From a virus: a DNA stretch of 64,000 nt. Every line of letters starts with the position of its first letter. Position 1 is the stretch's first letter. Of this stretch, positions 20,578 to 61,412 are shown piece by piece. The notes under the pieces were generated by a model. The model was given only the letters and a program-made list of their open reading frames with translations, was not told the origin of the DNA and did no database searches. The translations under genes and the position numbers were made by a program. Location of the stretch: positions 3,829 to 67,828 of the IMG/VR virus record IMGVR_UViG_3300029117_000001. One strand, given 5' to 3'.

Positions 20578-20603
20578 CACTCTTGTCTGCCCTTTATTTT
20601 TTT
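20562..20603 (+). terminator. terminator-like hairpin immediately upstream of the TMP start
   Basis: GGGCAG-19 nt-CTGCCC followed by TTTATTTTTTT; the stop codon of the preceding CDS lies in the loop. Confidence 0.5.
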
Positions 20604-20626
20604 GTAAAAAAGGAGGGACAAATAAA

Positions 20627-25440: not shown

Positions 25441-25565
25441 ACCGTTAATTTTGGTAAAACCAACAGGCTAGACCGATCATCGAAAAGCGGAAATGCCTTG
25501 CCGCCTGCCTGTTGATTTACATACAGTTCAAGGCACTCTTTTATACGAAAGGCAGGTATCAATCT

Positions 25566-27929: not shown

Positions 27930-27992
27930 TGCTTTCGGAATGCGTCCCAAAGTGGTACAATGTGGGTATCAAATATTGGGAGGTACGTATGT

Positions 27993-30302: not shown

Positions 30303-30426
30303 AAAACAGCCGTAGCACCGACCAAAGCACAAACGACTGTTTAAGCAACCAGAAGTCTCACATCTGGTAATCAATATCTTATCATTTGTGAGACTTCTTT
30401 TCAAGAGAAAAGGAGTATTTTTTTAT

Positions 30427-31188
30427 ATGAACGAAATCACAATTAACACAGCAAACCGGACACCTATCGAAATCGCACTTGGAATTGATGAAGAGGGCAT
30501 GACTACTGCCAGAAAGTTATATGCCTTTTTAGAATTGGATTCTAGCAATTATTCAAGATGGTGCAAGAGCAACATTACAGGAAATGAATTTGCAGAGGAA
30601 AACGTTGATTATTGGGCATTCGTCATTAATGACGAGACGCCGACAGGTGGTGTTATTCAGAGAGAAGATTACAAGCTTTCTGCCAGCTTTGCAAAGAAAC
30701 TTTCTATGCAGTCAAAGAGTGCCAAAGGTGAACAAGCCAGACAATATTTTCTCAAAGTAGAGGACAAATTAAAAGAAACAGTTCGCCACCCAGTACCAAT
30801 GACCATCCCCGAACAGATTCAGCTTCTAGCACAGGGAAACGTAGAACTGAATAAGCGGATTGACGATATTCAGACAGAGTTTGAGACTTTGAAAATGGAT
30901 TTGCCGATTCTCCCGATTGAAGCGGAGAAAATCACGGAAGCCGTAAAGAGAAAAGGAACGCTGGTACTTGGTGGCAAGGAATCCAATGCTTACAATAGCC
31001 GTTCCATTCGCCAGAAGGTTTACAGTAACATTCATTCCAATCTGCGCTACCAGTTCCAGGTCAAAAGCTACAAGGCAATTAAGAGAAGCCAGGTAGAACA
31101 GGCAGTCAAGATTATTGGAGAATACAAACCGCCAGTTTTCTTGAAGAATGAGATTGATACAGAAAATGCACAGCAGAGATTCTTTTAA
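30427..31188 (+). CDS. phage antirepressor (AntA-like N-terminal domain plus ORF6C C-terminal domain)
   Basis: RBS AAAGGAG; domain pattern typical of AntA/AntB antirepressors with a C-terminal ORF6C-type region. Confidence 0.55.
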   Translation: MNEITINTANRTPIEIALGIDEEGMTTARKLYAFLELDSSNYSRWCKSNITGNEFAEENVDYWAFVINDETPTGGVIQREDYKLSASFAKKLSMQSKSAKGEQARQYFLKVEDKLKETVRHPVPMTIPEQIQLLAQGNVELNKRIDDIQTEFETLKMDLPILPIEAEKITEAVKRKGTLVLGGKESNAYNSRSIRQKVYSNIHSNLRYQFQVKSYKAIKRSQVEQAVKIIGEYKPPVFLKNEIDTENAQQRFF

Positions 31189-38598: not shown

Positions 38599-38798
38599 TT
38601 ATGTGTTAGAGAGCTGCGGAAATTATAGCCTCCTTATCACGGTACAGCTATACTTGTGGTAAGGAGGTGATGTCATTATGACAGAGAATTTAATCATGGT
38701 AGGTATATTGTATAAAAAGTTTATGTTAAAGAGCATCCCATTTGGGGTGCTTTTTATTATGCACTTTTTTAACCTCAACAATGAAAGGAGAACATACA

Positions 38799-39604
38799 TG
38801 AATATCAATACCTCATTAATCAGCAACAACAACAGCTACGCCGGACAGACACCTCTGTATATTGTCATCCACAATACGGATAATACCGCCAAGACAGCAG
38901 ATGCCAAGGCACACGCCACCGCACAGCATAACGGCAATTTTCATGGCTATTCAGCCCACGTATTCGTTGATGATAAATCAGCATACCAAGCTTTGCCGTA
39001 TAATCGTGGAGCATGGCACGTTGGCGTAAATTACGGCAGTAAGCTTTTTGGAACTATAAACAATCACAACTCTATCGGGATTGAAATGTGCATGAATGCC
39101 GGTTACAACTACGAAAAGGCATTCCAAAATACAGTTGATGTATGTAAGAAGCTTATGAAAAAATACGGCATTCCGGCAAGCCGAGTTGTTCAGCACTACG
39201 ATGTTTGCGCTAAGAATTGTCCTTCCGTTATCCGTGGAAAGGGTGACTGGAATAGATTTAAGAAGCTTATTTCCAGTGAAACCGTGACAGTTCCAACCAC
39301 AAAGCCGACAGTAAAGATTGACAAGTATTACCGTGTCCGCAAGACCTGGAAGGATTCCAAGAGCCAGATCGGGGCGTACAAGTCACTCAAAAATGCAAAG
39401 AAAGCTTGCAAAGCCGGTTATTCTGTTTTTGATTGGAATGGAAAAGCTGTGTATTCCGTGACTGCAAAGAAAAGTGTAGCCAAGGTAGCAAAAGAGGTAA
39501 TTAACGGCGAGTGGGGGAACGGACAAGATAGACGAGACCGCCTGGAAGCTGCCGGCTACAACTACGCAGAAGTGCAGAAAAAAGTCAATGAATTACTGAA
39601 ATAA
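38799..39604 (+). CDS. endolysin: N-acetylmuramoyl-L-alanine amidase (Amidase_2/PGRP fold) with a C-terminal cell-wall-binding region
   Basis: PLYIVIHNTDNTA ... GYSAHVFVDD ... HYDVCAKNCP are amidase_2 zinc and catalytic motifs; C-terminal INGEWGNGQDRRDRLEAAGYNYAEVQKKVNELL is the lysin C-terminal motif. Strong RBS GAAAGGAG. An in-frame alternative start at 38678 adds a 40-aa hydrophobic extension. Confidence 0.8.
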
Positions 39605-42267: not shown

Positions 42268-42891
42268 GTGGCTGAGAAATTTGGGAAAAGACATGACAAA
42301 CTCATTTCCGAAATTGAAAGAATGTATTCTGATTTGATTGGAAAAGGGTGTGCTCAAAATGGTGGAGACCCCTTATTTATTAAAAGCAGTTATGTACATC
42401 CTCAAAATAAACAGACTTATCCATTTTATATAATGAATAGGGATGGATTTTCTTTACTAGTAATGGGATTTACAGGGAAAGAAGCCCTTGAATGGAAATT
42501 GCAATACATAAAAGCTTTTAACCAGATGGAGAATTTCATTCGTGAGAAATCAACCCAGGTTTGGATTGAAACCAGAAAAGCCGGGAAACTTACCAGAAAG
42601 GCAGAAACCGATACTATTCAGAAACTTGTTGAATACGCCAAAGTACAGGGAAGCAGTCATGCAGAAATGCTTTACATGACATATTCCAAATTAGCAAACA
42701 AGATGGCTGGAATCAATAAGAGAGATGAAGCTACGGTAATGCAACTCAACAATCTGTCCTTGATGGAAAATATTATCTTACATGAAATTGATCTCGGAAT
42801 CATGCAAGAAAAACATTATAAGGAAATCTACAAAGATTGCAAGAAGAGATTGGAGACAGTTAAAGATTTGGCTTATCTGGAAGCGGTTTGA
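42268..42891 (+). CDS. phage regulatory protein Rha (second paralog); start ambiguous
   Basis: VAEKFGKRHDKLISEIERM ... DGFSLLVMGFTGKEALEWKLQYIKAFNQME parallels the Rha at 31914. The conserved Rha N-terminus continues in-frame upstream (IDDLVYLQNEEAVCDSLQ) back to an ATA codon 6 nt after GGAGG, with no ATG. Confidence 0.55.
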   Translation: MAEKFGKRHDKLISEIERMYSDLIGKGCAQNGGDPLFIKSSYVHPQNKQTYPFYIMNRDGFSLLVMGFTGKEALEWKLQYIKAFNQMENFIREKSTQVWIETRKAGKLTRKAETDTIQKLVEYAKVQGSSHAEMLYMTYSKLANKMAGINKRDEATVMQLNNLSLMENIILHEIDLGIMQEKHYKEIYKDCKKRLETVKDLAYLEAV

Positions 42892-43474
42892 GAGGAAAAT
42901 TCATAAGGAGGTGGGAAGATTACAATTATCAAATTTAAAAATGGGGAAACAATCGAAATTCCGTGCGTGTTCCCGGATGATATTGTGAAACCAGATATTA
43001 GAGATCAACTGATGCGCTTAGAATGGGATGATGGGGGAAAACAATATTGCTTGAAGTTTAACCCAGTAGATGTGCTCTATGTAAAAGAGATTACATAAAG
43101 CACACCAGATAATTATCTAACTGATGGGTATTCTGTTGCAGTTGCTTTTCCAACTTTGACAGGTTCTTTGCTTAAAAAGGTAAGAAATTCATCGTTGTAT
43201 GCGTGGTACAATTTAAGAATTTCTTTTGAACCAGAACCTCCTTTAAGGAGATTATAACATAAGAATTACTATAAGAAAATTTGTGAGAGGTTGAACAGAT
43301 AATGAAAAAGAAAATCGGAAATAGTATGCGTATTCCAAAAAGTTTCCGTGGACAAATAGTGGATGTGAAACCATACCATGAAGAAGGAAGGACTGTATGG
43401 ACGTTTTGGCTGTTTGGTGAAAAATGGATAGCTTTTGAAAATTGGATTTTTGATGAAAATTGGAAAGGAGACTA

Positions 43475-44248
43475 ATGAACGAATTACAGATTTTTAATTC
43501 TCCAGAGTTCGGAGATATTCGAACAGTAATGGTTGAAAACGAACCAATGTTTTGTTTATCTGATGTTTGCAGAGCGTTGGAGATAACAAATGTTGGAAAT
43601 GTAAAACAACGGTTATCCGAAAAGGGTATCCGTACTATGGATACCCTTACAAAAGGTGGAAACCAGAAACTTCTGTACATCAATGAAGCTAATTTGTACA
43701 AAACAATATTCCAAAGCCGAAAAGAATCAGCACAACGTTTTACAGATTGGGTGACAGATGAAGTCCTACCATCCATCCGAAAGAACGGTGGTTACATTTT
43801 AGGACAAGAAACTCTTTCTGATGAAGAATTGATGACGAAAGCAATTCTGGTAGCGCAGAAGAAAATCGCAGAGAGAGACAAGATTATCGAAAAGCAAAGA
43901 CTAAAAATTGAAGCAGACAAGCCGAAAACGATCTTTGCCGATGCAGTATCAACCAGCCACACTTCAATCCTTATTGGAGACCTCGCAAAGTTAATTTGTC
44001 AGAACGGTATCCAGACAGGACAGAAGAGATTATTCCAGTGGATGCGAGAAAATGGATATCTGATGAAGTTTGGTGCAAGTTACAATATGCCAATGCAGAG
44101 ATACATTGAACAAGGGCTATTTGAAGTTAAGGAATCCAGTGTTCAGAATCCAGACGGAAGTGTTCGAGTAACGAGAACCACAAAAGCTACTGGAAAAGGG
44201 CAACTGTATTTTATCAATAAGTTTCTTGGAAATGAAATGGCAAGTTAA
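43475..44248 (+). CDS. antirepressor with a BRO-N domain and a KilA-C-type C-terminal domain
   Basis: N-terminus LQIFNSPEFGDIRTVMVENEPMFCLSDVCRALEI is a BRO-N signature; the C-terminal region matches KilAC-type antirepressors. Confidence 0.65.
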   Translation: MNELQIFNSPEFGDIRTVMVENEPMFCLSDVCRALEITNVGNVKQRLSEKGIRTMDTLTKGGNQKLLYINEANLYKTIFQSRKESAQRFTDWVTDEVLPSIRKNGGYILGQETLSDEELMTKAILVAQKKIAERDKIIEKQRLKIEADKPKTIFADAVSTSHTSILIGDLAKLICQNGIQTGQKRLFQWMRENGYLMKFGASYNMPMQRYIEQGLFEVKESSVQNPDGSVRVTRTTKATGKGQLYFINKFLGNEMAS

Positions 44249-44322: not shown

Positions 44323-44604
44323 ATGATTAAATTCGAAAACGGTTTAGTTAACATTTCTGGTAAAGGGATTGATATTCTTTCAGAGTATGCAGTTATTACC
44401 CATGAAATTAAAGAGATGTTCGTAAAGGATGGTGGAGAAGAGGAAGAAGTAAAAGAGCAGCTTAGACATTCGTTCGAGCATGGCCTTATGAACGAGGAAG
44501 AACTTGACAAGCGGTTTATTGAAGCTATGAAAGATCCTGGTTTAGTAGGAATGTTAATTGGAGCAGCTGGGCTTTCGTTATTATTCGGTCAGAAGGACAA
44601 GTAG
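44323..44604 (+). CDS. hypothetical protein whose 3' end abuts or overlaps the left end of the IS
   Basis: RBS AAGGAGGAAAAATAGCATG. Confidence 0.4.
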   Translation: MIKFENGLVNISGKGIDILSEYAVITHEIKEMFVKDGGEEEEVKEQLRHSFEHGLMNEEELDKRFIEAMKDPGLVGMLIGAAGLSLLFGQKDK

Positions 44605-44605
44605 A

Positions 44606-45760
44606 TTGCTGAAGAGTTTCAAGACAGAGATCGACCCTACCAAAGAGCAGAAGACCAAAATACATAAGACAATCGGCACATGCAGATATATTTATAATTT
44701 TTACCTGTTTCATAATAAAGAACGTTATGATGCCGGCAAAAGATTTATGAGTGGCAAGGCGTTCAGTGTATGGCTGAATAATGAGTATCTTCCGAATCAT
44801 CCAGAATATTCATGGATCAGAAAGGTCAGTTCCAAATCAGTAAAGAATGCGATCGAAAATGCATGCACAGCGTTTTTAAGATTTTTTCATCATCAGAGCG
44901 GTTTTCCAAGATATAAGAAAAAAGGAAGATCTGATGTGAAAATGTATTTTGTAAGGAATAATCCAAAAGACTGTTTTTGCGAAAGGCACAGGATCAAGAT
45001 TCCTACACTTGGATGGGTAAGGCTGAAAGAAAAAGGGTATCTCCCGACATCTAAGGATGGATATGTGATCCGAAGTGGAGCAGTTTCTATGAAAGCAGGA
45101 AGATATTATGTTTCTGCGCTTATCGAAGTACCAGCACCGGAAGTGGGTAAAAATTTCAGTGATGGGATCGGGATCGATCTGGGGATTAAGGATCTGGCTA
45201 TTGTGTCGAATGGAACTATATACAGAAATATCAATAAAACCGCACAGATCAGAAAACTTGAGAAACAATTAAGACGGGGACAGCGAAAGCTTTCCAGCAA
45301 ATCTGAAAATTTAAAGAAAGGAGAGTTCACTCAAAGAGCAAATATACGAAAACAAAAGCTCAAGGTACAGAAACTTTATCACCGGATGGAAAATATCCGT
45401 ACAGATCATATAAATAAGGCAATATCTGAGATTGTGAAAACCAAGCCGTCTCACATAACGATTGAGGATCTGAACGTATCCGGGATGATGAAGAACCGGA
45501 ATCTCTCAAAAGCAGTTGCGTCACAAAAATTCTATGAATTCCGGATGAAACTGAAAGCAAAATGTGCAGAATATGGAATCGAACTGAGGGTAGTTGATAG
45601 GTGGTATCCATCTTCAAAGATCTGTCATTGTTGTGGATGTATCAAAAAAGATCTGAAACTTTCGGACAGGATCTACAGATGTGTATGCGGTTATACTGAA
45701 GACAGAGATTTCAATGCAGCACTGAATCTGAGGGATGCTAAGACTTACGAAATTGCATGA
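44606..45760 (+). CDS. tnpB: TnpB (RuvC-like RNA-guided nuclease of IS200/IS605 family)
   Basis: LLKSFKTEIDPTKEQ N-terminus typical of TnpB; RuvC-I GIDLGIKDLA, RuvC-II ITIEDLNVSGM, zinc finger CHCCGC ... CVCGY, RuvC-III DRDFNAALN. TTG start at 44606 inferred; an in-frame ATG at 44558 is the alternative. Confidence 0.8.
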   Translation: MLKSFKTEIDPTKEQKTKIHKTIGTCRYIYNFYLFHNKERYDAGKRFMSGKAFSVWLNNEYLPNHPEYSWIRKVSSKSVKNAIENACTAFLRFFHHQSGFPRYKKKGRSDVKMYFVRNNPKDCFCERHRIKIPTLGWVRLKEKGYLPTSKDGYVIRSGAVSMKAGRYYVSALIEVPAPEVGKNFSDGIGIDLGIKDLAIVSNGTIYRNINKTAQIRKLEKQLRRGQRKLSSKSENLKKGEFTQRANIRKQKLKVQKLYHRMENIRTDHINKAISEIVKTKPSHITIEDLNVSGMMKNRNLSKAVASQKFYEFRMKLKAKCAEYGIELRVVDRWYPSSKICHCCGCIKKDLKLSDRIYRCVCGYTEDRDFNAALNLRDAKTYEIA

Positions 45761-46581: not shown

Positions 46582-47199
46582 ATGCAAAGATTAAATAAAG
46601 TAAGATTATCCGGCAGAGCCGGGGAAATAGTATTTAGCCACGAACATTACGGAAGATACTATTACAAATTCATGCTGACAGTTATTCGTAAAAGCGGTGC
46701 AGTAGATATGTTTCCAATCGTTATAGAAGATTCCGTTGTGCGTGATAATGATTACAACGGAAAAGAAGTTGTGGTAACAGGAGCAATCAGAAGCATGGAC
46801 ACTTCTAAAAATCCAAATAAGCACCACAATGTTAGTTATATCGCAGCTGATGAAGTAGAAATCCTGGATGAACAGGTTCCAGATGGCGATATAAACAAAG
46901 TAGAGTTTATTGCCAGAAGTTGCACGAAAGAGCCATATGCAAAACTTACATCAGTAACGCACAGAAAAGTTTCAAATCTTTTTGTAGCAATTCCAAGAGA
47001 GTATTCAGAAAGAGCGGATTTTATTCGCTGTACTTTATGGGGAAAAGGTGCTGATCTGGCGGTAGAGGTTAAAAGAAATGATTACATTAAAGTAACTGGC
47101 AGGTTAATGAGCCGTGATGTTTATGTTAATGGGGAAGAAACGGAAAGTGTATATGAGATTTCCGTAAAAGAAATGGAGAAATTGGAGGATGAAGAATAA
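46582..47199 (+). CDS. SSB-like protein with two OB folds (paralog 1)
   Basis: N-terminus NKVRLSGRAGEIV ... and C-terminal ADFIRCTLWGKGADLAVEVKRNDYIKVTGRLMSRDVY ... ESVYEISV parallel the E. coli SSB segment [37 protein letters not shown] ... TEVVV. Two such units are present per polypeptide. Confidence 0.5.
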   Translation: MQRLNKVRLSGRAGEIVFSHEHYGRYYYKFMLTVIRKSGAVDMFPIVIEDSVVRDNDYNGKEVVVTGAIRSMDTSKNPNKHHNVSYIAADEVEILDEQVPDGDINKVEFIARSCTKEPYAKLTSVTHRKVSNLFVAIPREYSERADFIRCTLWGKGADLAVEVKRNDYIKVTGRLMSRDVYVNGEETESVYEISVKEMEKLEDEE

Positions 47200-47851
47200 T
47201 AAGAATAAAGTTCAGATGTATGGCGTAATAATGGATATTCAGCCAGGAACGTTTTTCAAGGACGGAGAAAAATTCGTAAGATTCTATATTGGTGCAAAGC
47301 GTACCAGTGGGAACGTAGATTTGCTTCCAGTAATTGTTGAAGAAAAGCAGACGGAAGGCTTAAAGATTGGAAAACACGTCTATGTTGAAGGAAGATACAG
47401 TTCTTCAAACAAACATGAAAGTGGAAAGTCACATTTGATTCTTAAAATCAAAGCGGAAACAATCTGGTGTGGAGATGGTGATGGGAGTGCAGAAGGTGAA
47501 AACAAAATCATTCTGGAAGGTTATCTTTGCAAGCCTCCTATTTACCGCAGAACACCAAGAGGAAAAGAAATCTGTGATTTGATGATTGCTTGCAATGAAT
47601 ATGACTTGCGAAGAACAGATTATATCCCATGTATAGCATGGTGGAAAGAAGCCAGAGAAGCTGCTGATTTCAAGGTTGGAGATTTCGTAAAAATAATCGG
47701 AAGAATCCAGAGCCGGATTTATCATAAAAAATTATCTGGTGATGAAGTAGAGCTTAGAACTGCATATGAGGTATCAATAGGGAGGATAATCGAGCATGAA
47801 GGTGGAAGTAAAAAAGATTTCGTTGGAGAATTACAAGAAGTTTCCGAGTAA
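47189..47851 (+). CDS. SSB-like protein with two OB folds (paralog 2)
   Basis: TDYIPCIAWWKEAREAADFKVGDFVKIIGRIQSRIYHKK ... AYEVSI is the same pattern; overlaps its neighbours on both sides. Confidence 0.5.
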   Translation: MKNNKNKVQMYGVIMDIQPGTFFKDGEKFVRFYIGAKRTSGNVDLLPVIVEEKQTEGLKIGKHVYVEGRYSSSNKHESGKSHLILKIKAETIWCGDGDGSAEGENKIILEGYLCKPPIYRRTPRGKEICDLMIACNEYDLRRTDYIPCIAWWKEAREAADFKVGDFVKIIGRIQSRIYHKKLSGDEVELRTAYEVSIGRIIEHEGGSKKDFVGELQEVSE

Positions 47852-49823
47852 GTCTGTAGATTTGTTTCCAAGAACAGAGATTTCTGGCAGAAACAGAGAA
47901 GGAAAATCCACATTGCAGGACGCATATTTGGACGTTCTGACAGGAAAGATGGCAAATGGTACAGAACCGACTTCTATTAGAAGAAAAGAAAATGGCTTGG
48001 AAGTGCCAAAAGTTGATGTTATAAGAGAGCTTACGCTTGCGATTGATGGAAAAGAAAAAGTGATCCGCAAAATCACAAAACAGAAGTGGAGAAAACCGAG
48101 GGGACAATCCGAAGAGGTGTTCGATGGAAATGAAACTTCTTATGAAATTGACGGATTCCCGGCTAAATCAAAGGATTATACCGAGTTCATCCAGTCAATA
48201 GCAGAACCTTCAACGCTTCTGATGTGCAGTAACCCAAAACCATTTCTGGACACATTGCAGAAGTCAACAGCAGAATCCAGAAAGGTACTGGAAAAGATGT
48301 CTGGTTTTGATATTGCACAGTTTATGGAAGAAAATCCACAGTACGCTCATGTGGAAGAAATCACAAAAGGGCATTCCGTAGAGGATACCTTGAAGAAGCT
48401 CCGAAAGGAACTGAATGCACAGAAGAAAAAGGTGGATGCCAAAAACACGGAGATTGCATATGAAACCAATCGAAGCATTGAAGCAGAAGATACTTCCTCC
48501 CTAGAATCCAAAAAACAGGAGCTTAATGCGGAGCTTTCCAAACTGGAAGAACAGGAAAAGATTCTTGAAGATTCAGCAAAAGGCTATGACAGCCTTACAT
48601 ATGAAATCCGAGGGCTGAAATCTTCCAGGGATGGACTTGTTAGCAAGGCAGATAATGAGCTGAAAGACAAGAAAGCAGCCATTATGAATGTGTATTATGA
48701 CCTTGCAAAAAATAAAATTGAAAAAGAATCAGCTATCCGAATGTTGGGAATGGAACTGGACAACCACATAAGAGCTGGGCAACAGGCGAAAGCTGACTTG
48801 GATAGAGCCAGACAGGACTATCCGAGAATCAAAGAAATGGAGTGGGATGATTCTGAACTGAAAGCTATTGAAGCTGAAACATTCAATGATTCTGATACTA
48901 TTTGCCCTACCTGTGGACAAGAGCTGCCAGAAGAACAAGTTTCCGAATTGAGAGCTTCCTTTGAAGAAAAGAAGAAGTTTAGAATTGAAAATGAATTAAC
49001 CAAAAAGCAAAACTGGGAATCAGCAAAACAGAACCAGTTGAAAGGAACTTGTGATCTTGGAAATTCTGCTGCTGCAAAATTAAAGAAAACTAACGAGGAA
49101 ATCAACAAATTACAGTCGGAAATCGGCGCAGCACAGGATGAAGTTGATGAACTTACTAAGCAGATTGAGGAAGAACAGTCCAAATTTACGGAGCTTCCAG
49201 AATCTGTAGATATGACAAATGATGAAGAATATCTTGCAGTTACAGTGAGAATTGCAGAACTTGAAGAGAAACTGAAATCATTTGATGATGTTACTGGAAA
49301 GAAACAGGAATTAAGAATGCAGATCAGCAATGTTATGAAACAGATTTCCAATGTGGATGCAGACATTAAGATTGCACAGGCAGCAGTCACAGAGAAAGAA
49401 AAGCGAGTAGCCGAACTGAATGAGGAACTGAAAAGCCTTGGACAGGTACAAGCTGATATTGAAAAGAACATTGATACCGTTCTTAACTTCTCAATCCAGA
49501 AGAATAAGGCACTGGCAGAGAAAATCAATCCATTTTTCCATCATTTTCAGTTCAGTTTCCTTGATTACACGATTGAGGGAAATCCAGTGGAGACTTGCAA
49601 GATGATCTGCAATGGAATTGATTACAACAGCGGATTGAATCATTCAGATAAGATTCTGTGTGAGGTCGATTTACTGAATGGATTACAGGAAATGAATGGG
49701 CTGAATATGCCGATTTGGATTGATGATTCGGAGAGCATTGATAAAAGCAGAATCCCTGTATTAGACAGGCAAATGATCGTACTAAGAGTGACGGACGATG
49801 ATTTGAGAGTGAGAAAAATTTAA
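47796..49823 (+). CDS. SbcC/Rad50/SMC-like ATPase (recombination/repair)
   Basis: Walker A GRNREGKST at the N-terminus; about 400 aa of coiled coil; a central Cys-x2-Cys zinc-hook-like motif (ICPTCGQELPEEQ); C-terminal signature and Walker B/D-loop region (LNMPIWIDDSESID). Confidence 0.65.
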   Translation: MKVEVKKISLENYKKFPSKSVDLFPRTEISGRNREGKSTLQDAYLDVLTGKMANGTEPTSIRRKENGLEVPKVDVIRELTLAIDGKEKVIRKITKQKWRKPRGQSEEVFDGNETSYEIDGFPAKSKDYTEFIQSIAEPSTLLMCSNPKPFLDTLQKSTAESRKVLEKMSGFDIAQFMEENPQYAHVEEITKGHSVEDTLKKLRKELNAQKKKVDAKNTEIAYETNRSIEAEDTSSLESKKQELNAELSKLEEQEKILEDSAKGYDSLTYEIRGLKSSRDGLVSKADNELKDKKAAIMNVYYDLAKNKIEKESAIRMLGMELDNHIRAGQQAKADLDRARQDYPRIKEMEWDDSELKAIEAETFNDSDTICPTCGQELPEEQVSELRASFEEKKKFRIENELTKKQNWESAKQNQLKGTCDLGNSAAAKLKKTNEEINKLQSEIGAAQDEVDELTKQIEEEQSKFTELPESVDMTNDEEYLAVTVRIAELEEKLKSFDDVTGKKQELRMQISNVMKQISNVDADIKIAQAAVTEKEKRVAELNEELKSLGQVQADIEKNIDTVLNFSIQKNKALAEKINPFFHHFQFSFLDYTIEGNPVETCKMICNGIDYNSGLNHSDKILCEVDLLNGLQEMNGLNMPIWIDDSESIDKSRIPVLDRQMIVLRVTDDDLRVRKI

Positions 49824-52458: not shown

Positions 52459-53406
52459 ATGGCAGGAAAAACACAGTTAGCAACAACAGGAGAACAACAG
52501 GCGGCAATTGTAATTAACAACTCATTCATTGATGGATTGGTTAAGCAGCTTGAAAAAAAATGCGAATATGGTCTTTCGTTCCCAAAAGACTACAACCTAA
52601 GCAATGCGCTCATGGGGGCGTATCTGATTCTGAAAGAAACAAAAGACAGAAATAATAAGCCAATTCTGGAATCTTGCACATCCACAAGCATTGCAAACAG
52701 TCTTATGAACATGGCAACACTTGGTCTTTCAGTGCAGAAAAAGCAAGGATATTTTATTTCTTACGGAAATCAGTGTCAGTTCCAGAGGTCTTACTTCGGA
52801 AACATTACAATAGCCAGAAGATACGGAATGAAAGATATTCACGCCGAGATCATCTACCAAGGAGATAAGTTCAAATACCACATTGAAGATGGAAACAAGG
52901 TACTTGATTCCCACGAACAGGACTTTATGAATATTGATAATGATAAAATTCTTGGCGCATATGCAGTAGTGCTGATGGAAGATGGAACAAAGCATTTGGA
53001 AGTAATGAACATGAAGCAGATCAAACAATCTTGGTTACAGGGCTATGGGTACAAAGAAAACGGCAATGGAACGCATCAGAAATTCACTGACCAGATGGCA
53101 AAGAAAACAGTTATCAATCGTGCATTAAAGCAGATTATCAACAGCCACGGTGATGTTTTTGTACAGGAAGCTGACGAGAATACAGAGGATATTCCAAAAC
53201 AGGATATTATTGAACAAGACGTTGCTTATGAAATTAGTGAGAACGCAAACACAGAAGAATTCATTCCACAACCAGAAGTAATCGAAGAAAAGCCAAAGCA
53301 GCCAACCGTAGCCGAAACCGTAAAAACAACAGAGAAAGAACCAGTTCCGGCAGCAGAGCCAGTGGAAACAGAAATTCCGTCATTTATGAGCCAGGAGGAA
53401 ATGTAG
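52459..53406 (+). CDS. recT: RecT-family single-strand annealing recombinase
   Basis: Central region ILGAYAVV ... QMAKKTVINRALK characteristic of RecT/Red-beta; acidic C-terminal tail; strong RBS AAAAGGAGAATTAAAATG. Confidence 0.7.
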   Translation: MAGKTQLATTGEQQAAIVINNSFIDGLVKQLEKKCEYGLSFPKDYNLSNALMGAYLILKETKDRNNKPILESCTSTSIANSLMNMATLGLSVQKKQGYFISYGNQCQFQRSYFGNITIARRYGMKDIHAEIIYQGDKFKYHIEDGNKVLDSHEQDFMNIDNDKILGAYAVVLMEDGTKHLEVMNMKQIKQSWLQGYGYKENGNGTHQKFTDQMAKKTVINRALKQIINSHGDVFVQEADENTEDIPKQDIIEQDVAYEISENANTEEFIPQPEVIEEKPKQPTVAETVKTTEKEPVPAAEPVETEIPSFMSQEEM

Positions 53407-53582: not shown

Positions 53583-53858
53583 ATGAAGCATAAATGTATT
53601 AAGACAGCAGTATTAGTCACAGGGGCTATAGCAATCATAATGTTTAGTGGTTGTTCTTCCTGTAGCAGATCATTAAAATCACTATCCAGTGATATTGACG
53701 GCGGTCTGAACCGTACCGTAACTGTTTACGATTACAACGGCGGTAAAATTAAGTCCTGGTCTGGAAAGTTTGATGTTTCCGAATCAGAGAATGAAGTTTA
53801 CTTTGATGATTCTGACGGAAAAAGAGTTATTATCCATGGCGGTATTGTAGTGAATTAG
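53583..53858 (+). CDS. small lipoprotein
   Basis: Signal peptide with lipobox MFSG-C (LVTGAIAIIMFSGCSS); strong RBS. Confidence 0.45.
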   Translation: MKHKCIKTAVLVTGAIAIIMFSGCSSCSRSLKSLSSDIDGGLNRTVTVYDYNGGKIKSWSGKFDVSESENEVYFDDSDGKRVIIHGGIVVN

Positions 53859-53881: not shown

Positions 53882-54481
53882 ATGAATGAAATTTTAAAGA
53901 AAGCAAAAGAACGGGTTGAACTTTTAGAGAAGCAGGAGAAAAGTGGGAAAATCAAATTATCAGAGTTGAACCCTGGTGATGTATTCCAAACTACAGGTAA
54001 AAGAAAATACAAAGTGTTGGAACAGTATGAAAATACCACCAAGATAGTTTCTTTTGACCTTGTAAAAGAAAATGTAAAATTCGGGGATAATGCAGATTAT
54101 TTAGAGTCTGAATTAAAAGAACTTTGTGACACGGAAATTTTAGCGAATTTTGAAGAGGAATTTGGTGCGGAGAATATTGAAACACATGAAGCAGATCTTA
54201 TTACGGTCGACGGTCAGAATACAGGCGTTTCGGTGAAATGTAAAATCAGACCTCTTACATTTGATGAAGCAAGAAAATATACGGAATTAACTCCGAACAA
54301 AAAACTTAATGACTGGTATTGGACATGTACATCTTGGTCAACAAAAGAACGCGGATGGAGTAGCGTTGCCGTTGTTTCCTCCTCGGGTAGCGTCAGCTAC
54401 TTTAACCGCATCAGTGACATCGGTGTTCGCCCAGTTTGTATCTTAAAATCTAATCTCTTTGTATCTAAAGTGGAGGAATAA
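53882..54481 (+). CDS. DGR target protein 1 (DUF1566 / C-type-lectin-fold variable protein) carrying VR1
   Basis: C-terminus ...WYWTCTSWST ... SVAVVSSSGSVSYFNRISDIGVRPVCI; the DNA at 54368-54442 is homologous to the TR with differences mostly at TR adenines. Confidence 0.7.
   Translation: MNEILKKAKERVELLEKQEKSGKIKLSELNPGDVFQTTGKRKYKVLEQYENTTKIVSFDLVKENVKFGDNADYLESELKELCDTEILANFEEEFGAENIETHEADLITVDGQNTGVSVKCKIRPLTFDEARKYTELTPNKKLNDWYWTCTSWSTKERGWSSVAVVSSSGSVSYFNRISDIGVRPVCILKSNLFVSKVEE
54368..54442 (+). repeat. DGR variable repeat 1 (VR1)
   Basis: 75-bp homolog of the TR; about 9 differences, 8 of them at TR adenines and one T-to-C, plus a 3' IMH-like divergence. Confidence 0.7.
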
Positions 54482-54483
54482 AA

Positions 54484-55080
54484 ATGAAAAAAGATTTGAA
54501 ATATTTTGAGACAGAAATAAAAAGAATTACAGAGGAATTCGAGGATTACAAAAAGAAACACATGGGCACTCCGAAACCCGGGGAAGTGGTTGAAATTTCC
54601 GGTATGGAATGGATAATACTGGACAAGCTTCCGGATGGATATTTTGCAATTTTAAATAGTTTTTATGGTAAAACAAGAATGTTTGATTCAGATTCCAGCA
54701 ATTGGAAAGAAAGTTCTTTAAGAGAAGAATTAAACACATCATTTTTAGAAAAAATTAATACGCCTTTCGATGGAAATGCAGTTGTTGAATTTGACCGTAA
54801 CCTGTTGGCATTGGACGGGCAGACTGAATATGGAACTTGTAGAGATAAGATTTCACTCTTAACCGTGGATGAATACAGAAAATACAGGAAATATTTGCCA
54901 AATATGGATAAATGGTGGTGGCTTATTACACCATGGAGTACACCTTACAATGATTATTTTAAGAGCGTAGCCGTTGTTTCCTCCTCGGGTTACGTCGACT
55001 ACGGTAACTGCTACGATGTCTGCGGTGTTCGCCCAGTTTGTATCTTTTCCTCTTCAATCTTTGAATCAGACGAGGATTAA
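54484..55080 (+). CDS. DGR target protein 2 (DUF1566 / C-type-lectin-fold variable protein) carrying VR2
   Basis: Paralog of target 1; C-terminus KWWWLITPWST ... SVAVVSSSGYVDYGNCYDVCGVRPVCIF; VR2 at 54970-55044. Confidence 0.75.
   Translation: MKKDLKYFETEIKRITEEFEDYKKKHMGTPKPGEVVEISGMEWIILDKLPDGYFAILNSFYGKTRMFDSDSSNWKESSLREELNTSFLEKINTPFDGNAVVEFDRNLLALDGQTEYGTCRDKISLLTVDEYRKYRKYLPNMDKWWWLITPWSTPYNDYFKSVAVVSSSGYVDYGNCYDVCGVRPVCIFSSSIFESDED
54970..55044 (+). repeat. DGR variable repeat 2 (VR2)
   Basis: Every VR2/TR difference in the body of the repeat (about 11) maps to a TR adenine (A to T or G); the 3'-terminal CAACCTG/CAGTTTG difference looks like IMH versus IMH*. Confidence 0.8.
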
Positions 55081-55082
55081 TA

Positions 55083-55454
55083 ATGGCAAATGAAGATTTA
55101 CAGGTGATAATAAAAGCCAAGCAGTTAGCAAAGCACACGCTTATAGTAACCAGTAACGCGAGGAGATATCCTAAGAAATTCAGATTTTCTTTAGTTGATA
55201 AAATGAAGAACAAATCGCTCGAAATACACGCTAAGCTCTTTGAAGCCAATCGAACAAATTTGAAAGATTATAAGAGAGAAAGGCTAGAATTACAGACAAA
55301 AGCAATTACATATTGTGATGAACTTCTCTTTTATATAGAGCTTTCATACGAGCTTAATATCATTAATTCGGGAAGTATGGAGACATGGTCGAAAATGGTT
55401 ACAGATATTAAGCATATGGCGATTGCTTGGAGAACAAAAGACAGAAACAGATGA
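55083..55454 (+). CDS. avd: DGR accessory variability determinant (Avd-like small basic helical protein)
   Basis: 123 aa, basic, predicted helical; located between the VR gene and the TR exactly as in Bordetella phage BPP-1 (mtd-avd-TR-brt). Confidence 0.6.
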   Translation: MANEDLQVIIKAKQLAKHTLIVTSNARRYPKKFRFSLVDKMKNKSLEIHAKLFEANRTNLKDYKRERLELQTKAITYCDELLFYIELSYELNIINSGSMETWSKMVTDIKHMAIAWRTKDRNR

Positions 55455-55478
55455 TTTTTATAGGTTATGCGTTGTAGA

Positions 55479-55553
55479 GCCGTTGTTTCCTCCTCGGGTA
55501 ACGTCAACAACAATAACTGCAACAATGACAACGGTGTTCGCCCAACCTGTATC
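55479..55553 (+). repeat. DGR template repeat (TR)
   Basis: Adenine-rich (AACGTCAACAACAATAACTGCAACAATGACAAC) non-coding copy of the VRs, 24 nt after avd and 95 nt before the RT gene. Confidence 0.8.
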
Positions 55554-55648
55554 ACAGGCAGACAGAGTAAGCAGAAAGCTGAAATCCGAATAGATACAAG
55601 CAAATGCATAACCTTTCCGCAATGGATAAATATAAAGGAACAAAATAA

Positions 55649-56695
55649 ATGGATAAAGAAATTGTGGCAAATTTTGAAAACTTGTATTCATCTTACAAAC
55701 GAGTTAAGGCAGATAAGAAATTCAATTCCGGCACTGCCAGGTTTTCTATTATGGCGTTGGAAGGAATCCAAACATTGAAGGAACAATTGGAAAATCAAAC
55801 GTATTCCATAGCACCGTATAATAAATTCAAAATATATGAGCCGAAAGAACGCATCATAGAATCGTGTTCTTTCAAAGACAAGACGGTACAGAGATGCTTT
55901 TCAGACTACATTCTTACGCCGAAATTAAATAATATTTTTATAAAATGGAACACAGCAGGACAAATCGGAAAAGGTCATTATATGGCAATGGATGGTCTGC
56001 GAGATCATATGTTGGAATTTTACAGTAAAAATGGTTTAAATGGCTGGATTGTAAAATGCGATATTCGTAAATATTTTTACAGCATAGATCATGAAATCAT
56101 GAAAGACGTGGTGGATTACTATTTTGATGATGAATTTACAGTATGGTTAAATCATCTATTTATTGACAGCGCCGAAAATCCAGGACTTCCACTTGGAAAT
56201 CAAGTTAATCAGAAATACGCTTTACTGTTACTGCATTCGTTGGATCAAATGATAACAATTGAATACGGAATACAGCATTACGGAAGGTATAATGATGATT
56301 TCTATGTGATTTGTAAAAGTAAAGAAGAAGCCAGAGAAATACTTGAAGCTATCCGGATTATGACCGAAAGCCTTAAAATACAATTGAATACTAAATCACA
56401 GATTGTGCCATTTAGAATGGGATTGTGCTATCTTGGCTTTCACCATTATGTAACCTCCGATGGGAAATATATTAGAAAACTTCGAGGAGATAAAAAAAGA
56501 AAAACACACAGGAAGATTCGAAATTGGATTAGAGCTGTGAATAATGGCGAAATGACAGAAGAAAAATTTCAAGAAAAATATAATGCGTGTAAAAACAATA
56601 TGCTGCATGGGAATTGTATTAAATTATGCCACAGCATGGATTTGGATGTTAAGAAAAGAATGAAAAGAGGTGATGAAAAATGTTCATGCGAGTAG
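55649..56695 (+). CDS. DGR reverse transcriptase
   Basis: Motif-by-motif parallel to BPP-1 bRT: FKIYEPKERIIESCSFKDKTVQRC (compare FLVYEPKPRLISALEFKDRLVQHA), KCDIRKYFYSIDHE (KSDFSKFFPSIDRA), GLPLGNQVNQ (GIPIGSLTSQ, the DGR-specific replacement of QGxxxSP), RYNDDFYV (RYMDDIVV, YxDD), MGLCYLGFHHY (RGINFLGYRIW). Confidence 0.85.
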   Translation: MDKEIVANFENLYSSYKRVKADKKFNSGTARFSIMALEGIQTLKEQLENQTYSIAPYNKFKIYEPKERIIESCSFKDKTVQRCFSDYILTPKLNNIFIKWNTAGQIGKGHYMAMDGLRDHMLEFYSKNGLNGWIVKCDIRKYFYSIDHEIMKDVVDYYFDDEFTVWLNHLFIDSAENPGLPLGNQVNQKYALLLLHSLDQMITIEYGIQHYGRYNDDFYVICKSKEEAREILEAIRIMTESLKIQLNTKSQIVPFRMGLCYLGFHHYVTSDGKYIRKLRGDKKRKTHRKIRNWIRAVNNGEMTEEKFQEKYNACKNNMLHGNCIKLCHSMDLDVKKRMKRGDEKCSCE

Positions 56696-57447
56696 TAAAC
56701 ACAGGAAGTACCCATGGAAACTGCTATGTTCTGAAATCAAACACAGGAGAAATACTTCTTCTGGACTGCGGATGCAGATACAAAGACATTCTAAGAGCTA
56801 TTGATTACAGAACAAGTGATGTTTCTGGCGTATTGCTTAGTCATGAGCATGGAGATCACATCAAATCATTTCGGGAACTGATGAACGCCGGCATTCAGAT
56901 TTACACCAATGATGAAACCGTGGAACATCTGCAAATCATCACTGGTGAGCTGATGAAAGGTGTTCCAGAGAAAAGACCATTTCGGGTTGGCTCGTTTACA
57001 GTAATACCGTTCTATTTGCCACATACTACAAGGGACAAGGATACAGGGCAACTTATTCCGTGTTTCAATTATGGGTATATCGTGGAACATAAAGAGATGG
57101 GAAAGCTGTTGTATATGACAGACTTTGAGTTTTGCCGATACAATTTCAAGGCAATGCGACTGAACCACTTGGTTATTGAGTGCAACTATTGTGGAGAATT
57201 GGTTGACAAAACAGCCGAAAATTACACGCACAGGCTTAAAGGGCATTGTTCATTAGATACTTGCAAAAGCTTAGTAAATACGAACCATACGGCAGCATTA
57301 CGGACAGTAACATTGGTGCATTTGAGTAATGAAGCAGCTGACCCGGAACAGATTTTGAGGGAGATACAAGAAACGTCTGGTGCTGATGCACTCGTCCATA
57401 TCGCAACACCCGGGTTAGAAGTTAATTTGGACTTATGTCCATTTTGA
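56680..57447 (+). CDS. metallo-beta-lactamase-fold hydrolase (possible phage recombination or processing nuclease)
   Basis: HxHxDH motif LSHEHGDHIK plus downstream His/Asp residues; overlaps the RT stop by 16 nt (translational coupling). Confidence 0.65.
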   Translation: MFMRVVNTGSTHGNCYVLKSNTGEILLLDCGCRYKDILRAIDYRTSDVSGVLLSHEHGDHIKSFRELMNAGIQIYTNDETVEHLQIITGELMKGVPEKRPFRVGSFTVIPFYLPHTTRDKDTGQLIPCFNYGYIVEHKEMGKLLYMTDFEFCRYNFKAMRLNHLVIECNYCGELVDKTAENYTHRLKGHCSLDTCKSLVNTNHTAALRTVTLVHLSNEAADPEQILREIQETSGADALVHIATPGLEVNLDLCPF

Positions 57448-58968: not shown

Positions 58969-59394
58969 GTGAATATTGTTATTCTTTCTGGAAGATTAAC
59001 TGCTGATCCAGATATCAGAATGGGAACGAATGACACAAAAATTGCAAGATATATTTTGGCTGTAGAGAGAAGAGTAAAAAAGAACACGGAAAGAAAATCT
59101 GACTTTATCACTTGCGTATGTCTTGGGAAAAATGCAGAATTCGCAGAGAAATATCTTAAAAAAGGCACGAAAGTAAATGTGCGTGGAGAATGGCAGACTG
59201 GAAACTATACAAATAAAAATGGTGAAAAAGTCTACTCAAATGATTGCCTTGTTGCAGAACATGAATTTGCAGAAAGAAAAAGCCAGTCACCACAGACACA
59301 GGAAACAGATACACGACCAGTACCACCGCCAGAACCTAGTTTCATGGATGTGCCGGATTTAGGCGGTATGGAAGATGAATTTCCGTTTAGTTAG
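58969..59394 (+). CDS. ssb: single-stranded DNA-binding protein
   Basis: MNIVILSGRLTADPDIR ... DFITCVCLGKNAEFAEKYLKKGTKVNVRGEWQTGNY is the canonical SSB OB fold; acidic C-terminal tip MEDEFPFS (DDIPF-like); GTG start. Confidence 0.8.
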   Translation: MNIVILSGRLTADPDIRMGTNDTKIARYILAVERRVKKNTERKSDFITCVCLGKNAEFAEKYLKKGTKVNVRGEWQTGNYTNKNGEKVYSNDCLVAEHEFAERKSQSPQTQETDTRPVPPPEPSFMDVPDLGGMEDEFPFS

Positions 59395-60038: not shown

Positions 60039-61412
60039 ATGAAAGATTTAATTATAGATTGCTTTGCCGGGGGCGGCGGCGCATCCGTAGGCATTGAAAT
60101 GGCCCTTGGTAGACCTGTAGACATAGCAATTAACCATGATCCAGATGCAATTCTAATGCATAAGACTAATCATCCCGGAACACTGCATCTGACAGAAGAC
60201 ATTTTCAAAGTAGATTTGCAGAAATATGTCGGAAACCAGCACGTAGCGTTGATGTGGGCTTCACCAGATTGTACAAGCCATTCAAAAGCAAAAGGCGGTC
60301 AGCCAAGGAAACAGGGGCTTCGCATTCTTCCGTGGTCTGTATATAAGCACGCAAAAGCAATTCTCCCAGATGTAATTATTATGGAGAACGTGGAAGAAAT
60401 ACAACAATGGGGGCCATTGGACGAGAAAGGACATCCGATTAAGGAAAGAGCTGGCGAAGATTATCGAAAATTCATTTCAGCAATGGAAAATATTGGTTAT
60501 GAATTTGACAGCCGAGAACTGGTAGCTGCTGATTACGGAGCACCAACTACAAGAAAACGTTGGTATGCGGTGTTTCGCAGGGATGGAAAGCAGATAATAT
60601 GGCCAAAGCCTACTCATAATCGTTTTGGCGAAGATGGATTGAAGCCATATGAACAGTGCGGAGACTACATTGATTGGTCGGACTTAGGAAAAAGTATATT
60701 TGAACGCCCTAAACCATTGGCAGAAGCAACGCAGAAACGTATCGCAAATGGAATCAAGAAATATATCGTTGATAATCCAGATCCTTACATTGTGCAGAGT
60801 AAAGATGCACTGGCGTTTATCATTCAGTATCATGGGGAAACCAGGAAAGGCGATTCCAGAGGGCAGTTGTTAACCGAACCAATTAAGACTATTGATACCT
60901 CAAATAGGTATGGACTTGTGACAGCTTTTATCACGAAATATTACAAGACTGGAATCGGTCAAGGCTGTGATGAGCCATTGCATACAATAACCACATCGCC
61001 CGATCACTTCGGGGTAATATCTGCATTTCTGGTCAAGTATTATGGGACAGGATGCGGACAGGTGCTTAATGAGCCACTCGGAACTATCACCACAAAAGAC
61101 AGATTCGGTCTAGTAAACGTTCTGGTTGATATCCATGGAGAGAAATACATTATTTCAGATATCTTTCTCAGAATGCTAAAGCCAGAAGAACTGAAGGTGA
61201 TGCAGGGATTCCCGAAAGATTACATTATTGATCGGGATTACAAGTGGAGAGATTACCCGATTGCGAAACAAGTAGCAAGAATCGGAAATAGTGTGGTTCC
61301 GGTTATGGCAGAAGCACTTGTGAAAGCAAATTGTCCGTATCTGAAAATTGGAGAACGCAAAGTTGCACCGATGATTTATATGCAGAATAATGGACAGGTA
61401 GCGTTTGGATAA
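60039..61412 (+). CDS. DNA (cytosine-5)-methyltransferase-like protein with a non-canonical motif IV
   Basis: Motif I DCFAGGGG, motif VI ENV (IIMENVEE), motif X GNSV (GNSVVPVMAEAL), Q..GFP motif; the expected PCQ catalytic motif is replaced by ASPDCTSHS. Confidence 0.65.
   Translation: MKDLIIDCFAGGGGASVGIEMALGRPVDIAINHDPDAILMHKTNHPGTLHLTEDIFKVDLQKYVGNQHVALMWASPDCTSHSKAKGGQPRKQGLRILPWSVYKHAKAILPDVIIMENVEEIQQWGPLDEKGHPIKERAGEDYRKFISAMENIGYEFDSRELVAADYGAPTTRKRWYAVFRRDGKQIIWPKPTHNRFGEDGLKPYEQCGDYIDWSDLGKSIFERPKPLAEATQKRIANGIKKYIVDNPDPYIVQSKDALAFIIQYHGETRKGDSRGQLLTEPIKTIDTSNRYGLVTAFITKYYKTGIGQGCDEPLHTITTSPDHFGVISAFLVKYYGTGCGQVLNEPLGTITTKDRFGLVNVLVDIHGEKYIISDIFLRMLKPEELKVMQGFPKDYIIDRDYKWRDYPIAKQVARIGNSVVPVMAEALVKANCPYLKIGERKVAPMIYMQNNGQVAFG

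Follow-up and report, generated by a model that had tools for sequence, protein, structure and literature searches.

Does the 2.8-kb cassette at positions 53882-56695 of a gut phage genome, in which a short repeat appears three times beside a reverse transcriptase (RT) gene, still rewrite its own genes? The DNA in question is a stretch of 64,000 nucleotides, positions 3,829 to 67,828 of IMG/VR virus record IMGVR_UViG_3300029117_000001, and we call this whole stretch the window. Our answer, to which we give a probability of roughly 95%, is that the cassette is a complete and currently active diversity-generating retroelement (DGR) in a tailed phage of about 80 kb from the human gut. It has the defining features of a DGR, it works like the DGR of Bordetella phage BPP-1, and its kind is already described in gut phages. 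The cassette holds two target genes, each ending in a variable repeat (VR), an avd accessory gene, a template repeat (TR) and the RT gene; the initiation of mutagenic homing element at the 3' end of a repeat is denoted IMH in the VRs and IMH* in the TR. Its parts, all on the plus strand, are the following:

53882-54481, +, target gene 1, small C-type-lectin-fold DUF6273-like protein of 199 amino acids (phrog_9958; paralogue of target 2)
54368-54442, +, VR1, 3' end of target 1, 12 differences from the TR
54422-54442, +, IMH of VR1, GGTGTTCGCCCAGTTTGTATC, an exact 21-mer in 110 of 144 related VRs
54484-55080, +, target gene 2, DUF6273 / C-type-lectin-fold protein of 198 amino acids (DUF6273 above threshold)
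54970-55044, +, VR2, 3' end of target 2 (amino acids 163-187), 10 body differences, all at TR adenines
55024-55044, +, IMH of VR2, same sequence as the IMH of VR1
55083-55454, +, avd accessory gene, basic protein of 123 amino acids (phrog_3206, DivGenRetAVD)
55479-55553, +, TR, with eight AAY codons and one GAC codon in the VR frame
55533-55553, +, IMH*, 3' end of the TR, GGTGTTCGCCCAACCTGTATC; its difference from the VRs at 55545-55547 is fixed family-wide
55649-56695, +, DGR reverse transcriptase of 348 amino acids (matches to bRT, phrog_1423 and RVT_1)

Three copies of one repeat

The repeat is 75 nucleotides long, and its three copies are in register. When each adenine of the TR is replaced by N, the resulting pattern occurs at exactly three sites in the 64 kb, namely VR1, VR2 and the TR itself, so that this search finds no additional VR in the window; none of 100 dinucleotide-preserving shuffles contains a match. 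Each VR lies in frame within a target open reading frame (ORF), at its 3' end, while the TR is intergenic: it begins 24 nucleotides past the stop of avd (55454) and ends 95 nucleotides ahead of the start of the RT gene (55649). A first-pass annotation of this DNA had placed a 75-bp TR exactly there, within the layout target-target-avd-TR-RT, and both the coordinates and the layout hold, with two paralogous targets (33% identity), an Avd (phrog_3206), the TR and the RT.

We take the repeat body to be positions 1-64, where the TR has 17 adenines, and count the remaining 3' end separately. In the body, 18 of the 19 differences between the TR and the two VRs, pooled, fall at TR adenines. VR2 differs from the TR at 13 positions, 10 of them in the body and all 10 at TR adenines (Fisher p = 1.3e-7), as had been claimed for this repeat. 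VR1 has 12 differences, 9 of them at TR adenines overall, and its body holds eight changes at adenines and one elsewhere (p = 4e-5); the adenine-specific pattern noticed at first pass thus stands, but with an exception in VR1 that had gone unmentioned. The remaining three differences are common to both VRs: A>G, C>T and C>T at 55545-55547, where the VRs read ...CCCAGTTTGTATC and the TR reads ...CCCAACCTGTATC.

Read in the frame of the VRs, the TR has AAC or AAT (AAY) at eight codons and GAC at one. By computation, adenine mutagenesis of these codons gives about 1e10 protein variants per target, and zero stop codons. A mechanical ORF of 103 amino acids (55467-55778, +), which begins 12 nucleotides before the TR and continues past the start of the RT gene, translates the TR in the frame used by the VRs (...AVVSSSGNVNNNNCNNDNGVRPTC...); rather than a real gene, it is most likely a trace of the origin of the TR from the 3' end of a target.

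Related loci and recent activity

A scan of IMG/VR with the RT yields 127 relatives, among which we keep 80 loci, mostly on contigs of 75-85 kb and with RT identities of 77-100%; labels such as L001 or L006 denote individual relative loci of this set. The TR-RT unit is present in 80/80, and the layout target-target-avd-TR-RT, with at least two VR-like matches, in 74. The TR lies 170 nucleotides upstream of the RT in all of them, and the VRs lie about 1111 and 509 nucleotides upstream of the TR in nearly all. At 90% identity, 665 sequences make up the cluster to which the closest homologue of target 2 belongs.

Comparing the TR of each locus with its own VRs, 144 VRs in total, gives 1596 mismatches in the body: 1498 at TR adenines and 98 elsewhere, for an odds ratio of 73. 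At these adenines the spectrum is A>G 789, A>T 626 and A>C 83. The proportion of TR adenines that are changed, 53%, is close to the adenine misincorporation of 52% reported for bRT-Avd in vitro (PMC7826257).

Nineteen loci share the exact TR of the window, and their VR1 and VR2 sequences are nearly all mutually different, almost only at the columns of TR adenines. Among these TR-identical relatives, nucleotide diversity per 50 nucleotides reaches 0.22-0.23 at each VR (0.23 at VR2), is 0.0 at the TR, and stays at 0-0.03 over most of the length of the rest of the target genes. In near-identical genomes, the TR is invariant and the VRs are hypervariable.

Recombination or gene conversion between paralogues, or ordinary diversifying selection, could also make VRs variable, with no part for the RT. 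Relatives do exhibit duplications, deletions and VR/TR chimeras, and their number of targets goes from one to three. However, such processes would not confine 94% of the differences to the adenine positions of a non-coding TR, nor hold this TR invariant while both VRs vary; and the spectrum, A>G and A>T with rarely A>C, together with a rate of about 53% per adenine, fits misincorporation by an RT. We consider it very improbable that the RT is not involved.

The comparison of the window with L001, its closest relative, bears directly on the timing. Over the 2.8-kb cassette, the two genomes differ at 1/2590 positions outside the repeats, 14/75 in VR1, 1/75 in VR2 and 0/75 in the TR. VR1 must then have been rewritten after the split of the two genomes, very recently, and independently of VR2; this contrast between 1/2590 outside the repeats and 14/75 in VR1, though indirect evidence of ongoing retrohoming, is the ground on which we judge the element active.

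Would the same data be compatible with an element that is a DGR by descent, now inactive in this genome, with VR differences that record past activity only? The four ORFs, the TR, the IMH/IMH* pair and the spacer between TR and RT are all intact, and identical or nearly so to those of the relatives, and the 1/2590 against 14/75 in VR1 implies retrohoming within a very short divergence time. What could be said for a dead element is that the T>C change of VR1 is found in no relative, and that decayed relatives exist (the VR1/TR fusion of L006, the lost targets of L061, the frameshifted VR2 of L013). On balance, we find inactivity improbable, and the reading of an active DGR is retained.

The IMH/IMH* distinction, which the first-pass annotation proposed for VR2, holds family-wide: a single chimera is the exception among 144 VRs and 80 TRs. 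In place of the VR 21-mer, the TRs of the family have ...CCCAACC... or ...CCCAACA.... In five loci (L014-L016, L018 and L019), the 3' end of VR2, at the equivalent of window positions 55035-55038, reads CCCGGCTTG. This is a TR/VR hybrid, with the C of the TR at the position of 55546, the T of the VRs at 55547, and a G for the preceding adenine; these hybrids suggest that the 3' boundary of information transfer can fall within the IMH triplet. In L056, the 3' end of the TR resembles that of a VR (AGTT), and two adenine positions are occupied by a GGC codon; this TR appears to be the product of a VR-to-TR conversion, or a chimera.

Rearrangements of the cassette itself are also seen. In L006, VR1 and the TR are fused, and target 2 and avd are deleted; L061 lacks the two targets along with the beginning of avd; L013 has a frameshift within VR2; L022 carries a tandem duplication of target2-avd-TR. 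L066 has one target only, and L117 has three in tandem. A scan of IMG/VR with the IMH matched 120 stretches, and in the 80 contigs listed from it the VRs stand as one to four tandem copies, with none at a remote site. It seems that recombination between VR and TR repeats changes the copy number in these relatives. The architecture had first been described as that of BPP-1 with two tandem targets: the gene order is indeed the same, but two targets are not unusual, since relatives carry one to three.

The reverse transcriptase

The best solved relative of the RT is the bRT of BPP-1 (PDB 8ub7, E = 1e-23, residues 6-296), and the next best, group II intron and retron-type RTs in the PDB, come at 6e-10 or worse. 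The protein matches the phage RT family phrog_1423 with E = 9.5e-82, and Pfam RVT_1 with E = 5.5e-10. Its nearest RTs among GenBank phages, at 33-37% identity, are those of nd12, nd4 and the Faecalibacterium phages Brigit, Lelie and Toutatis, all five from described DGRs. Residues R68 and L182 align with R74 and I181 of bRT: the R is kept, and the I is replaced by L. On these alignments, the enzyme belongs with DGR RTs.

At first pass, GLPLGNQVNQ, at amino acids 179-188, had been named as a DGR-specific motif in place of QGxxxSP, and a YxDD box had been seen to parallel that of bRT. Both motifs are present, but the first contains a variant, LGxxxNQ, of the signature [I/V/L]GxxxSQ of DGR RTs (PMC7826257), and the box, at amino acids 214-217, is YNDD and not YMDD. 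These deviations are common to the whole family; the related DGR RTs have xGxQxSQ and YMDD.

An RT of another system, such as a group II intron, a retron, or an abortive infection (Abi) or defence-associated RT (DRT), could conceivably lie near a repeat by chance. The NCBIfam model of group II intron RTs scores 98.7 bits on the protein, Drt3a scores 44 bits, and the RT/DRT models of PADLOC match up to 1e-30. But these matches are generic, and the two NCBIfam scores are far under their cut-offs of 300 and 200 bits. Among solved relatives, the bRT of BPP-1 leads by 13 orders of magnitude, every one of the nearest phage RTs comes from a DGR, the protein has no maturase or endonuclease domain, Rfam reports no intron or retron RNA, and an Avd gene and a TR stand immediately upstream. 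That the RT serves such a system is extremely improbable, and we keep to a DGR enzyme.

Avd and the target proteins

The basic protein encoded between the targets and the TR (K+R = 24 versus D+E = 15) matches phrog_3206, 'Avd protein of DGR', with E = 6e-23, and judged by this match it is Avd.

Targets 1 and 2 are paralogous, with 33% identity (E = 1e-26), and belong to phrog_9958, a family of no assigned function (E = 1.5e-25 for target 1). Against Pfam DUF6273 (PF19789), whose gathering threshold is 23.5 bits, target 2 scores 28.3 and target 1 scores 20.8, slightly under. The first-pass annotation had spoken of DUF1566/C-type-lectin segments. The lectin part holds in the structure model, but the family is DUF6273: it matches 35/35 members of the target family at E <= 1, and DUF1566 (PF07603) matches 0/35 at the same threshold. 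PDB sequence searches with Avd, target 2 and the target profile return nothing meaningful.

A first structure model of the target, built from 35 close homologues only, has a pLDDT (predicted local distance difference test) of 43.8 and is unusable. The model built from 149 sequences, distant DUF6273 proteins included, confirms a C-type-lectin fold, and in it the variable residues 170-180 are on a strand, part of a beta-hairpin, and on the next loop. The targets are small single-domain proteins whose sole extra element is an N-terminal helix.

RNA elements around the template repeat

The 95 nucleotides that separate the TR from the RT gene, and the region just upstream of the TR, contain the following elements:

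55462-55473, +, Stop-like duplex, 5' strand, pairing over 12 bp with 55603-55614
55546-55558, +, small RNA hairpin CCUGU-AUC-ACAGG at the TR/spacer boundary, with a compensatory pair
55554-55648, +, TR-RT spacer of 95 nucleotides, nearly invariant in the family, with a sub-threshold match to Rfam RT-2
55560-55586, +, conserved spacer core AGACAGAGUA-[AGC AGAA(A) GCU]-GAAAUC, aligned with the conserved 5' core of RT-2
55603-55614, +, Stop-like duplex, spacer strand (AAUGCAUAACCU), partner of 55462-55473
55616-55636, +, short stem-loop UCC-GCAAU-GGA (55616-55626), then an A-rich run (UAAAUAUAAA); stem invariant in the family

In BPP-1, cryo-electron microscopy has described a 'cPRT Stop' made of an avd:Sp duplex, a stem-loop and A-minor adenosines, and a duplex of the avd:Sp type is predicted in 207 of 278 DGRs (bioRxiv 10.1101/2023.10.23.563531). 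We looked for the longest contiguous helix between the 30-nucleotide upstream flank of the TR and the spacer, in loci of eight lineages: the window family, nd12, nd4, Brigit, Lelie/Toutatis and three uncultured phages. In 11/11 loci the longest helix is the homologous one, 10-14 bp long, 4-30 nucleotides upstream of the TR and 50-78 nucleotides into the spacer, and in every tested locus it is preceded by a CAAAGG/CAAGG/CAAGCA motif. The paired sequences vary by lineage (TTATGC/GCATAA, GCGACTC/GAGTCGC, ATGACCT/AGGTCAT), and the number of shuffles that reach the observed helix length goes from 1 to 78 of 1000 per locus. Within the family, the 9-bp core (55462-55470 with 55606-55614) is 100% paired, with three single changes that are wobble-compatible. 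A stem-loop and an A-rich run after the duplex are also seen in relatives. The pairing of 55462-55473 with 55603-55614 matches, by this analogy, the 'cPRT Stop' of BPP-1, and would be its counterpart. An alternative statistic, RNAduplex z-scores against shuffled flanks, was dropped in favour of the contiguous-helix test, since long spacers permit sprawling duplexes.

The spacer also resembles a known RNA motif. Rfam RT-2 (RF03077) matches 55553-55657 on the RT strand with 26.1 bits and E = 2e-4 in a search of 351 nucleotides. This is below the gathering threshold of 40 bits, the outer stem is unformed, and the 119 model positions of the 3' stem-loop domain are replaced by 4 nucleotides; the spacer is therefore not an RT-2 RNA by the Rfam criterion. 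The TR-RT spacer of the Lelie DGR has a comparable full-length match, at 23.2 bits, the nd12 spacer searched alone has none, and a joint search of six loci finds nothing at E <= 0.1, which the stricter filters and the larger search space probably explain. By eye, the GAGUA-hairpin-GAAA core, whose stem covaries, can also be read in the spacers of nd12, Brigit and Lelie. RT-2 belongs to the set of RT-associated motifs published by Weinberg et al. 2017, in which RT-10 was shown to be the BPP-1 spacer and others were proposed to serve other DGRs (PMC5737381).

Support for the hairpin at the TR/spacer boundary is modest: one compensatory pair, C-G to A-U, in 7/20 family sequences. A candidate template:primer duplex, UGUAUC at 55548-55553 with GAUACA at 55593-55598, was rejected, its pairing being lost without compensation in most family members (TGGATC). 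The end of the spacer amounts to 22 nucleotides past the post-duplex stem-loop, mostly the A-rich run and a ribosome-binding site. Taken as a whole, the TR region folds as RNA with an energy no better than that of shuffles (z = -0.29).

The phage genome around the cassette

The window is most of a tailed-phage genome, with 37.6% G+C and nearly all genes on the plus strand. Its main landmarks are:

4374-6068, large terminase
6589-8085, portal
9278-10312, major head protein
20504-25303, tape measure
32953-37578, large tail protein
38678-39604, endolysin
30388-31188, 42268-42891 and 43460-44248, anti-repressor-like regulators
44558-45760, +, transposase of 400 amino acids (phrog_506, E = 1e-109), between the regulatory and recombination modules
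47796-49823, SbcC-like protein
52459-53406, RecT
53583-53858, +, small lipoprotein of 91 amino acids (phrog_2316, borderline DUF5052, signal ...FSGCSS...), directly upstream of target 1
53882-56695, +, DGR cassette, target-target-avd-TR-RT
56680-57447, +, hydrolase of the metallo-beta-lactamase (MBL) fold (phrog_392, E = 3e-56), overlapping the RT stop codon by 16 nucleotides
58969-59394, +, canonical single-stranded DNA-binding protein (SSB), downstream of the DGR
60039-61412, DNA methyltransferase

The transposase is probably that of an insertion sequence carried in the phage genome. The hydrolase next to the RT has a weak, sub-threshold resemblance to the anti-Pycsar protein Apyc1 (E = 5e-4, 19.9 bits versus a threshold of 50). 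Upstream of the SbcC-like gene are two tandem SSB-like paralogues (46582-47199 and 47189-47851, +; phrog_26861/phrog_44). In the tail module, directly 3' of the tape-measure gene, 25512-26783 (+) encodes a protein of 423 amino acids with an N-terminal HNH endonuclease domain, which may be a homing endonuclease, and between the tape-measure and tail-protein genes, 27960-28919 (+) encodes 319 amino acids that match superinfection-exclusion/lipoprotein families (phrog_4980, E = 2e-27). ARAGORN predicts a tRNA-Cys at 448-516 (+) with the odd anticodon ACA, normally GCA, which overlaps in part a mechanical ORF starting at 482. Counts of promoters and terminators are at chance level.

No copy of the RT is found in 185,579 GTDB species genomes, and no close relative of the phage in GenBank: its large terminase subunit (TerL) is at most 51% identical to any, and, among phages whose host is named, Clostridium phage Maintenon has the best-matching TerL (41.5% identity).

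Proposed mechanism and points that weigh against it

We propose the following sequence of events. A transcript with the end of avd, the 75-nucleotide TR and the 95-nucleotide spacer would be bound by an RT-Avd complex. In its folded form, the stretch immediately before the TR would be paired with the spacer in the Stop-like duplex, followed by the stem-loop and the adenosines. Priming of the cDNA would be in cis, as in BPP-1, probably by an adenosine of the spacer near 55596-55602, which is a few nucleotides ahead of 55603. The RT would then copy the TR faithfully save at adenines, and the cDNA would take the place of the homologous VR in one or the other of the tandem paralogous targets, at its 3' end, with the 21-nucleotide IMH, intact in the VRs and altered in the TR, setting the direction. 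The outcome would be the rewriting of nine codons, eight AAY and one GAC, in the beta-hairpin and loop of a lectin fold, that is, some 1e10 variants for each target.

Several observations weigh against this picture or some part of it. Activity is deduced by comparing assembled genomes, and the body of VR1 has a single non-adenine change, T>C at TR 55518. The RT has non-canonical forms of both DGR motifs, LGxxxNQ (LGNQVNQ, where L, G and Q are kept and S becomes N) and YNDD. The match of Avd to NCBIfam DivGenRetAVD is sub-cut-off (E = 1.4e-9, 38 bits versus 80), and those to Pfam bAvd and 23S_rRNA_IVP are also below their cut-offs. No DNA hairpin of the BPP-1 type is found 3' of the VRs, the flanks folding no better than shuffles (z = +1.07 and -0.60). 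There is no room in the spacer for a counterpart of the long bRT-binding stem-loop of BPP-1, the deletion of which abolishes cDNA synthesis in that phage, and the first 140 nucleotides of the RT ORF contain no convincing conserved structure (a weak consensus at -9.55 kcal/mol). Finally, the cassette is in a recombination/replication module, between RecT on one side and the MBL hydrolase and SSB on the other, about 16 kb from the tail genes.

The first-pass annotation had itself named what would tell against a DGR, and all of these outcomes were looked for. The DGR reading passed each: mismatches are enriched at adenines in the window and in the 144 VRs (1498 versus 98, odds ratio 73); the RT is nearer to bRT (1e-23) than to group II intron RTs (6e-10), with nearest phage RTs that are all from DGRs; and the VRs are hypervariable between near-identical genomes with an invariant TR. 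The fold it asked to be modelled is a C-type lectin with variable residues on a beta-hairpin and a loop.

By analogy with BPP-1, the role of the target proteins in the phage is most likely to bind a ligand or receptor. Since the cassette lies in the recombination/replication module and not beside the tail genes, a virion or receptor-binding role is nevertheless unproven. This early-module site, some 16 kb past the tail genes, and the small, single-domain, lectin-fold make-up of the proteins also lead to a different conjecture, which we find unlikely: the two diversified proteins would not be tail or receptor-binding proteins, but soluble binders that act inside the infected cell or after their release, with host defence or surface factors as examples of possible opponents. 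More modestly, the family may run on a minimal DGR RNA, with a 95-nucleotide spacer that does without the RT-binding stem-loop essential in BPP-1.

Comparison with known systems

The DGR of BPP-1 (mtd-avd-TR-brt) has the same order of target, avd, TR, spacer and RT, the same adenine-specific mutagenesis, an IMH/IMH* pair at the 3' ends of the repeats, a VR at the C-terminus of a target of C-type-lectin fold, and an RT that aligns over bRT residues 6-296 with R74 kept and I181 replaced by L. It also shares the duplex between the 5' flank of the TR and the spacer, followed by a stem-loop and adenosines (bioRxiv 10.1101/2023.10.23.563531). The two systems differ in their targets, two in tandem of 198-199 amino acids in the window versus one Mtd of 381 amino acids with beta-prism and beta-sandwich domains; in the length of the TR, 75 versus 134 nucleotides; and in the spacer, 95 nucleotides with no counterpart of the intergenic bRT-binding stem-loop versus 140 nucleotides. 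BPP-1 has a hairpin after the VR, whereas the window has none that is significant; its RT has IGxxxSQ and YMDD where that of the window has LGxxxNQ and YNDD; and its cassette is at the end of the tail module, not in a recombination/replication module. To our knowledge, none of the three BPP-1 features at stake here, namely the standard RT motif, the VR-flanking hairpin and the intergenic RT-binding stem-loop, is universal among DGRs.

The targets have no detectable sequence similarity to the DUF1566 proteins TvpA of Treponema denticola and the C-terminal domain of Legionella Lcl. The match to Rfam RF03077 spans exactly the TR-RT spacer, on the RT strand, with its AGACAnAGUA-hairpin-GAAAUC core aligned.

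The closest described relatives are the DGRs of human-gut Bacillota phages with DUF6273 targets: nd4/nd12 (PMC10743442), and likewise the Faecalibacterium phages Lelie, CP11, Toutatis and Brigit (PMC11792537; bioRxiv 10.1101/2024.10.15.618418). They share with the window the DUF6273 targets, with a VR at the C-terminus of the domain on a beta-hairpin, the use of one TR for two targets, and the spacer core and Stop-like duplex at the same position. Small targets made of DUF6273 only, with a flanking helix, are known among them: nd4_tgt2, nd12_tgt2, and the small targets of Lelie and CP11 (PMC10743442, PMC11792537, bioRxiv 10.1101/2024.10.15.618418). Yet these phages combine a small target with a large 'tentaclin' of immunoglobulin (Ig) domains downstream of the RT, whereas the window has two small paralogous targets, both located upstream of avd, and its RT is followed by the gene of an MBL-fold hydrolase. 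The cassettes of those phages are beside tail or lysis genes, unlike that of the window; their spacers are 165-240 nucleotides long, versus 95; their RTs have xGxQxSQ and YMDD, versus LGxxxNQ and YNDD; and the phage backbone of the window is unrelated to theirs at the DNA level.

The understanding of DGRs is unaltered by this locus. Gut-phage DGRs with small lectin-fold DUF6273 targets, two per TR, are already described (PMC10743442, PMC11792537). What differs here is the pair of small tandem paralogues with no 'tentaclin' of Ig domains, the place in the genome, the shortness of the spacer, and the NQ and YNDD motifs. The locus adds a well-populated example, with at least 127 related contigs and visible activity, and its pairs of near-identical genomes in which one of two targets has been rewritten are usable for the study of target choice and retrohoming rates. 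If the short spacer suffices, such a compact cassette, with 2.8 kb, a 75-nucleotide TR and a 95-nucleotide spacer, could suit DGR-based mutagenesis.

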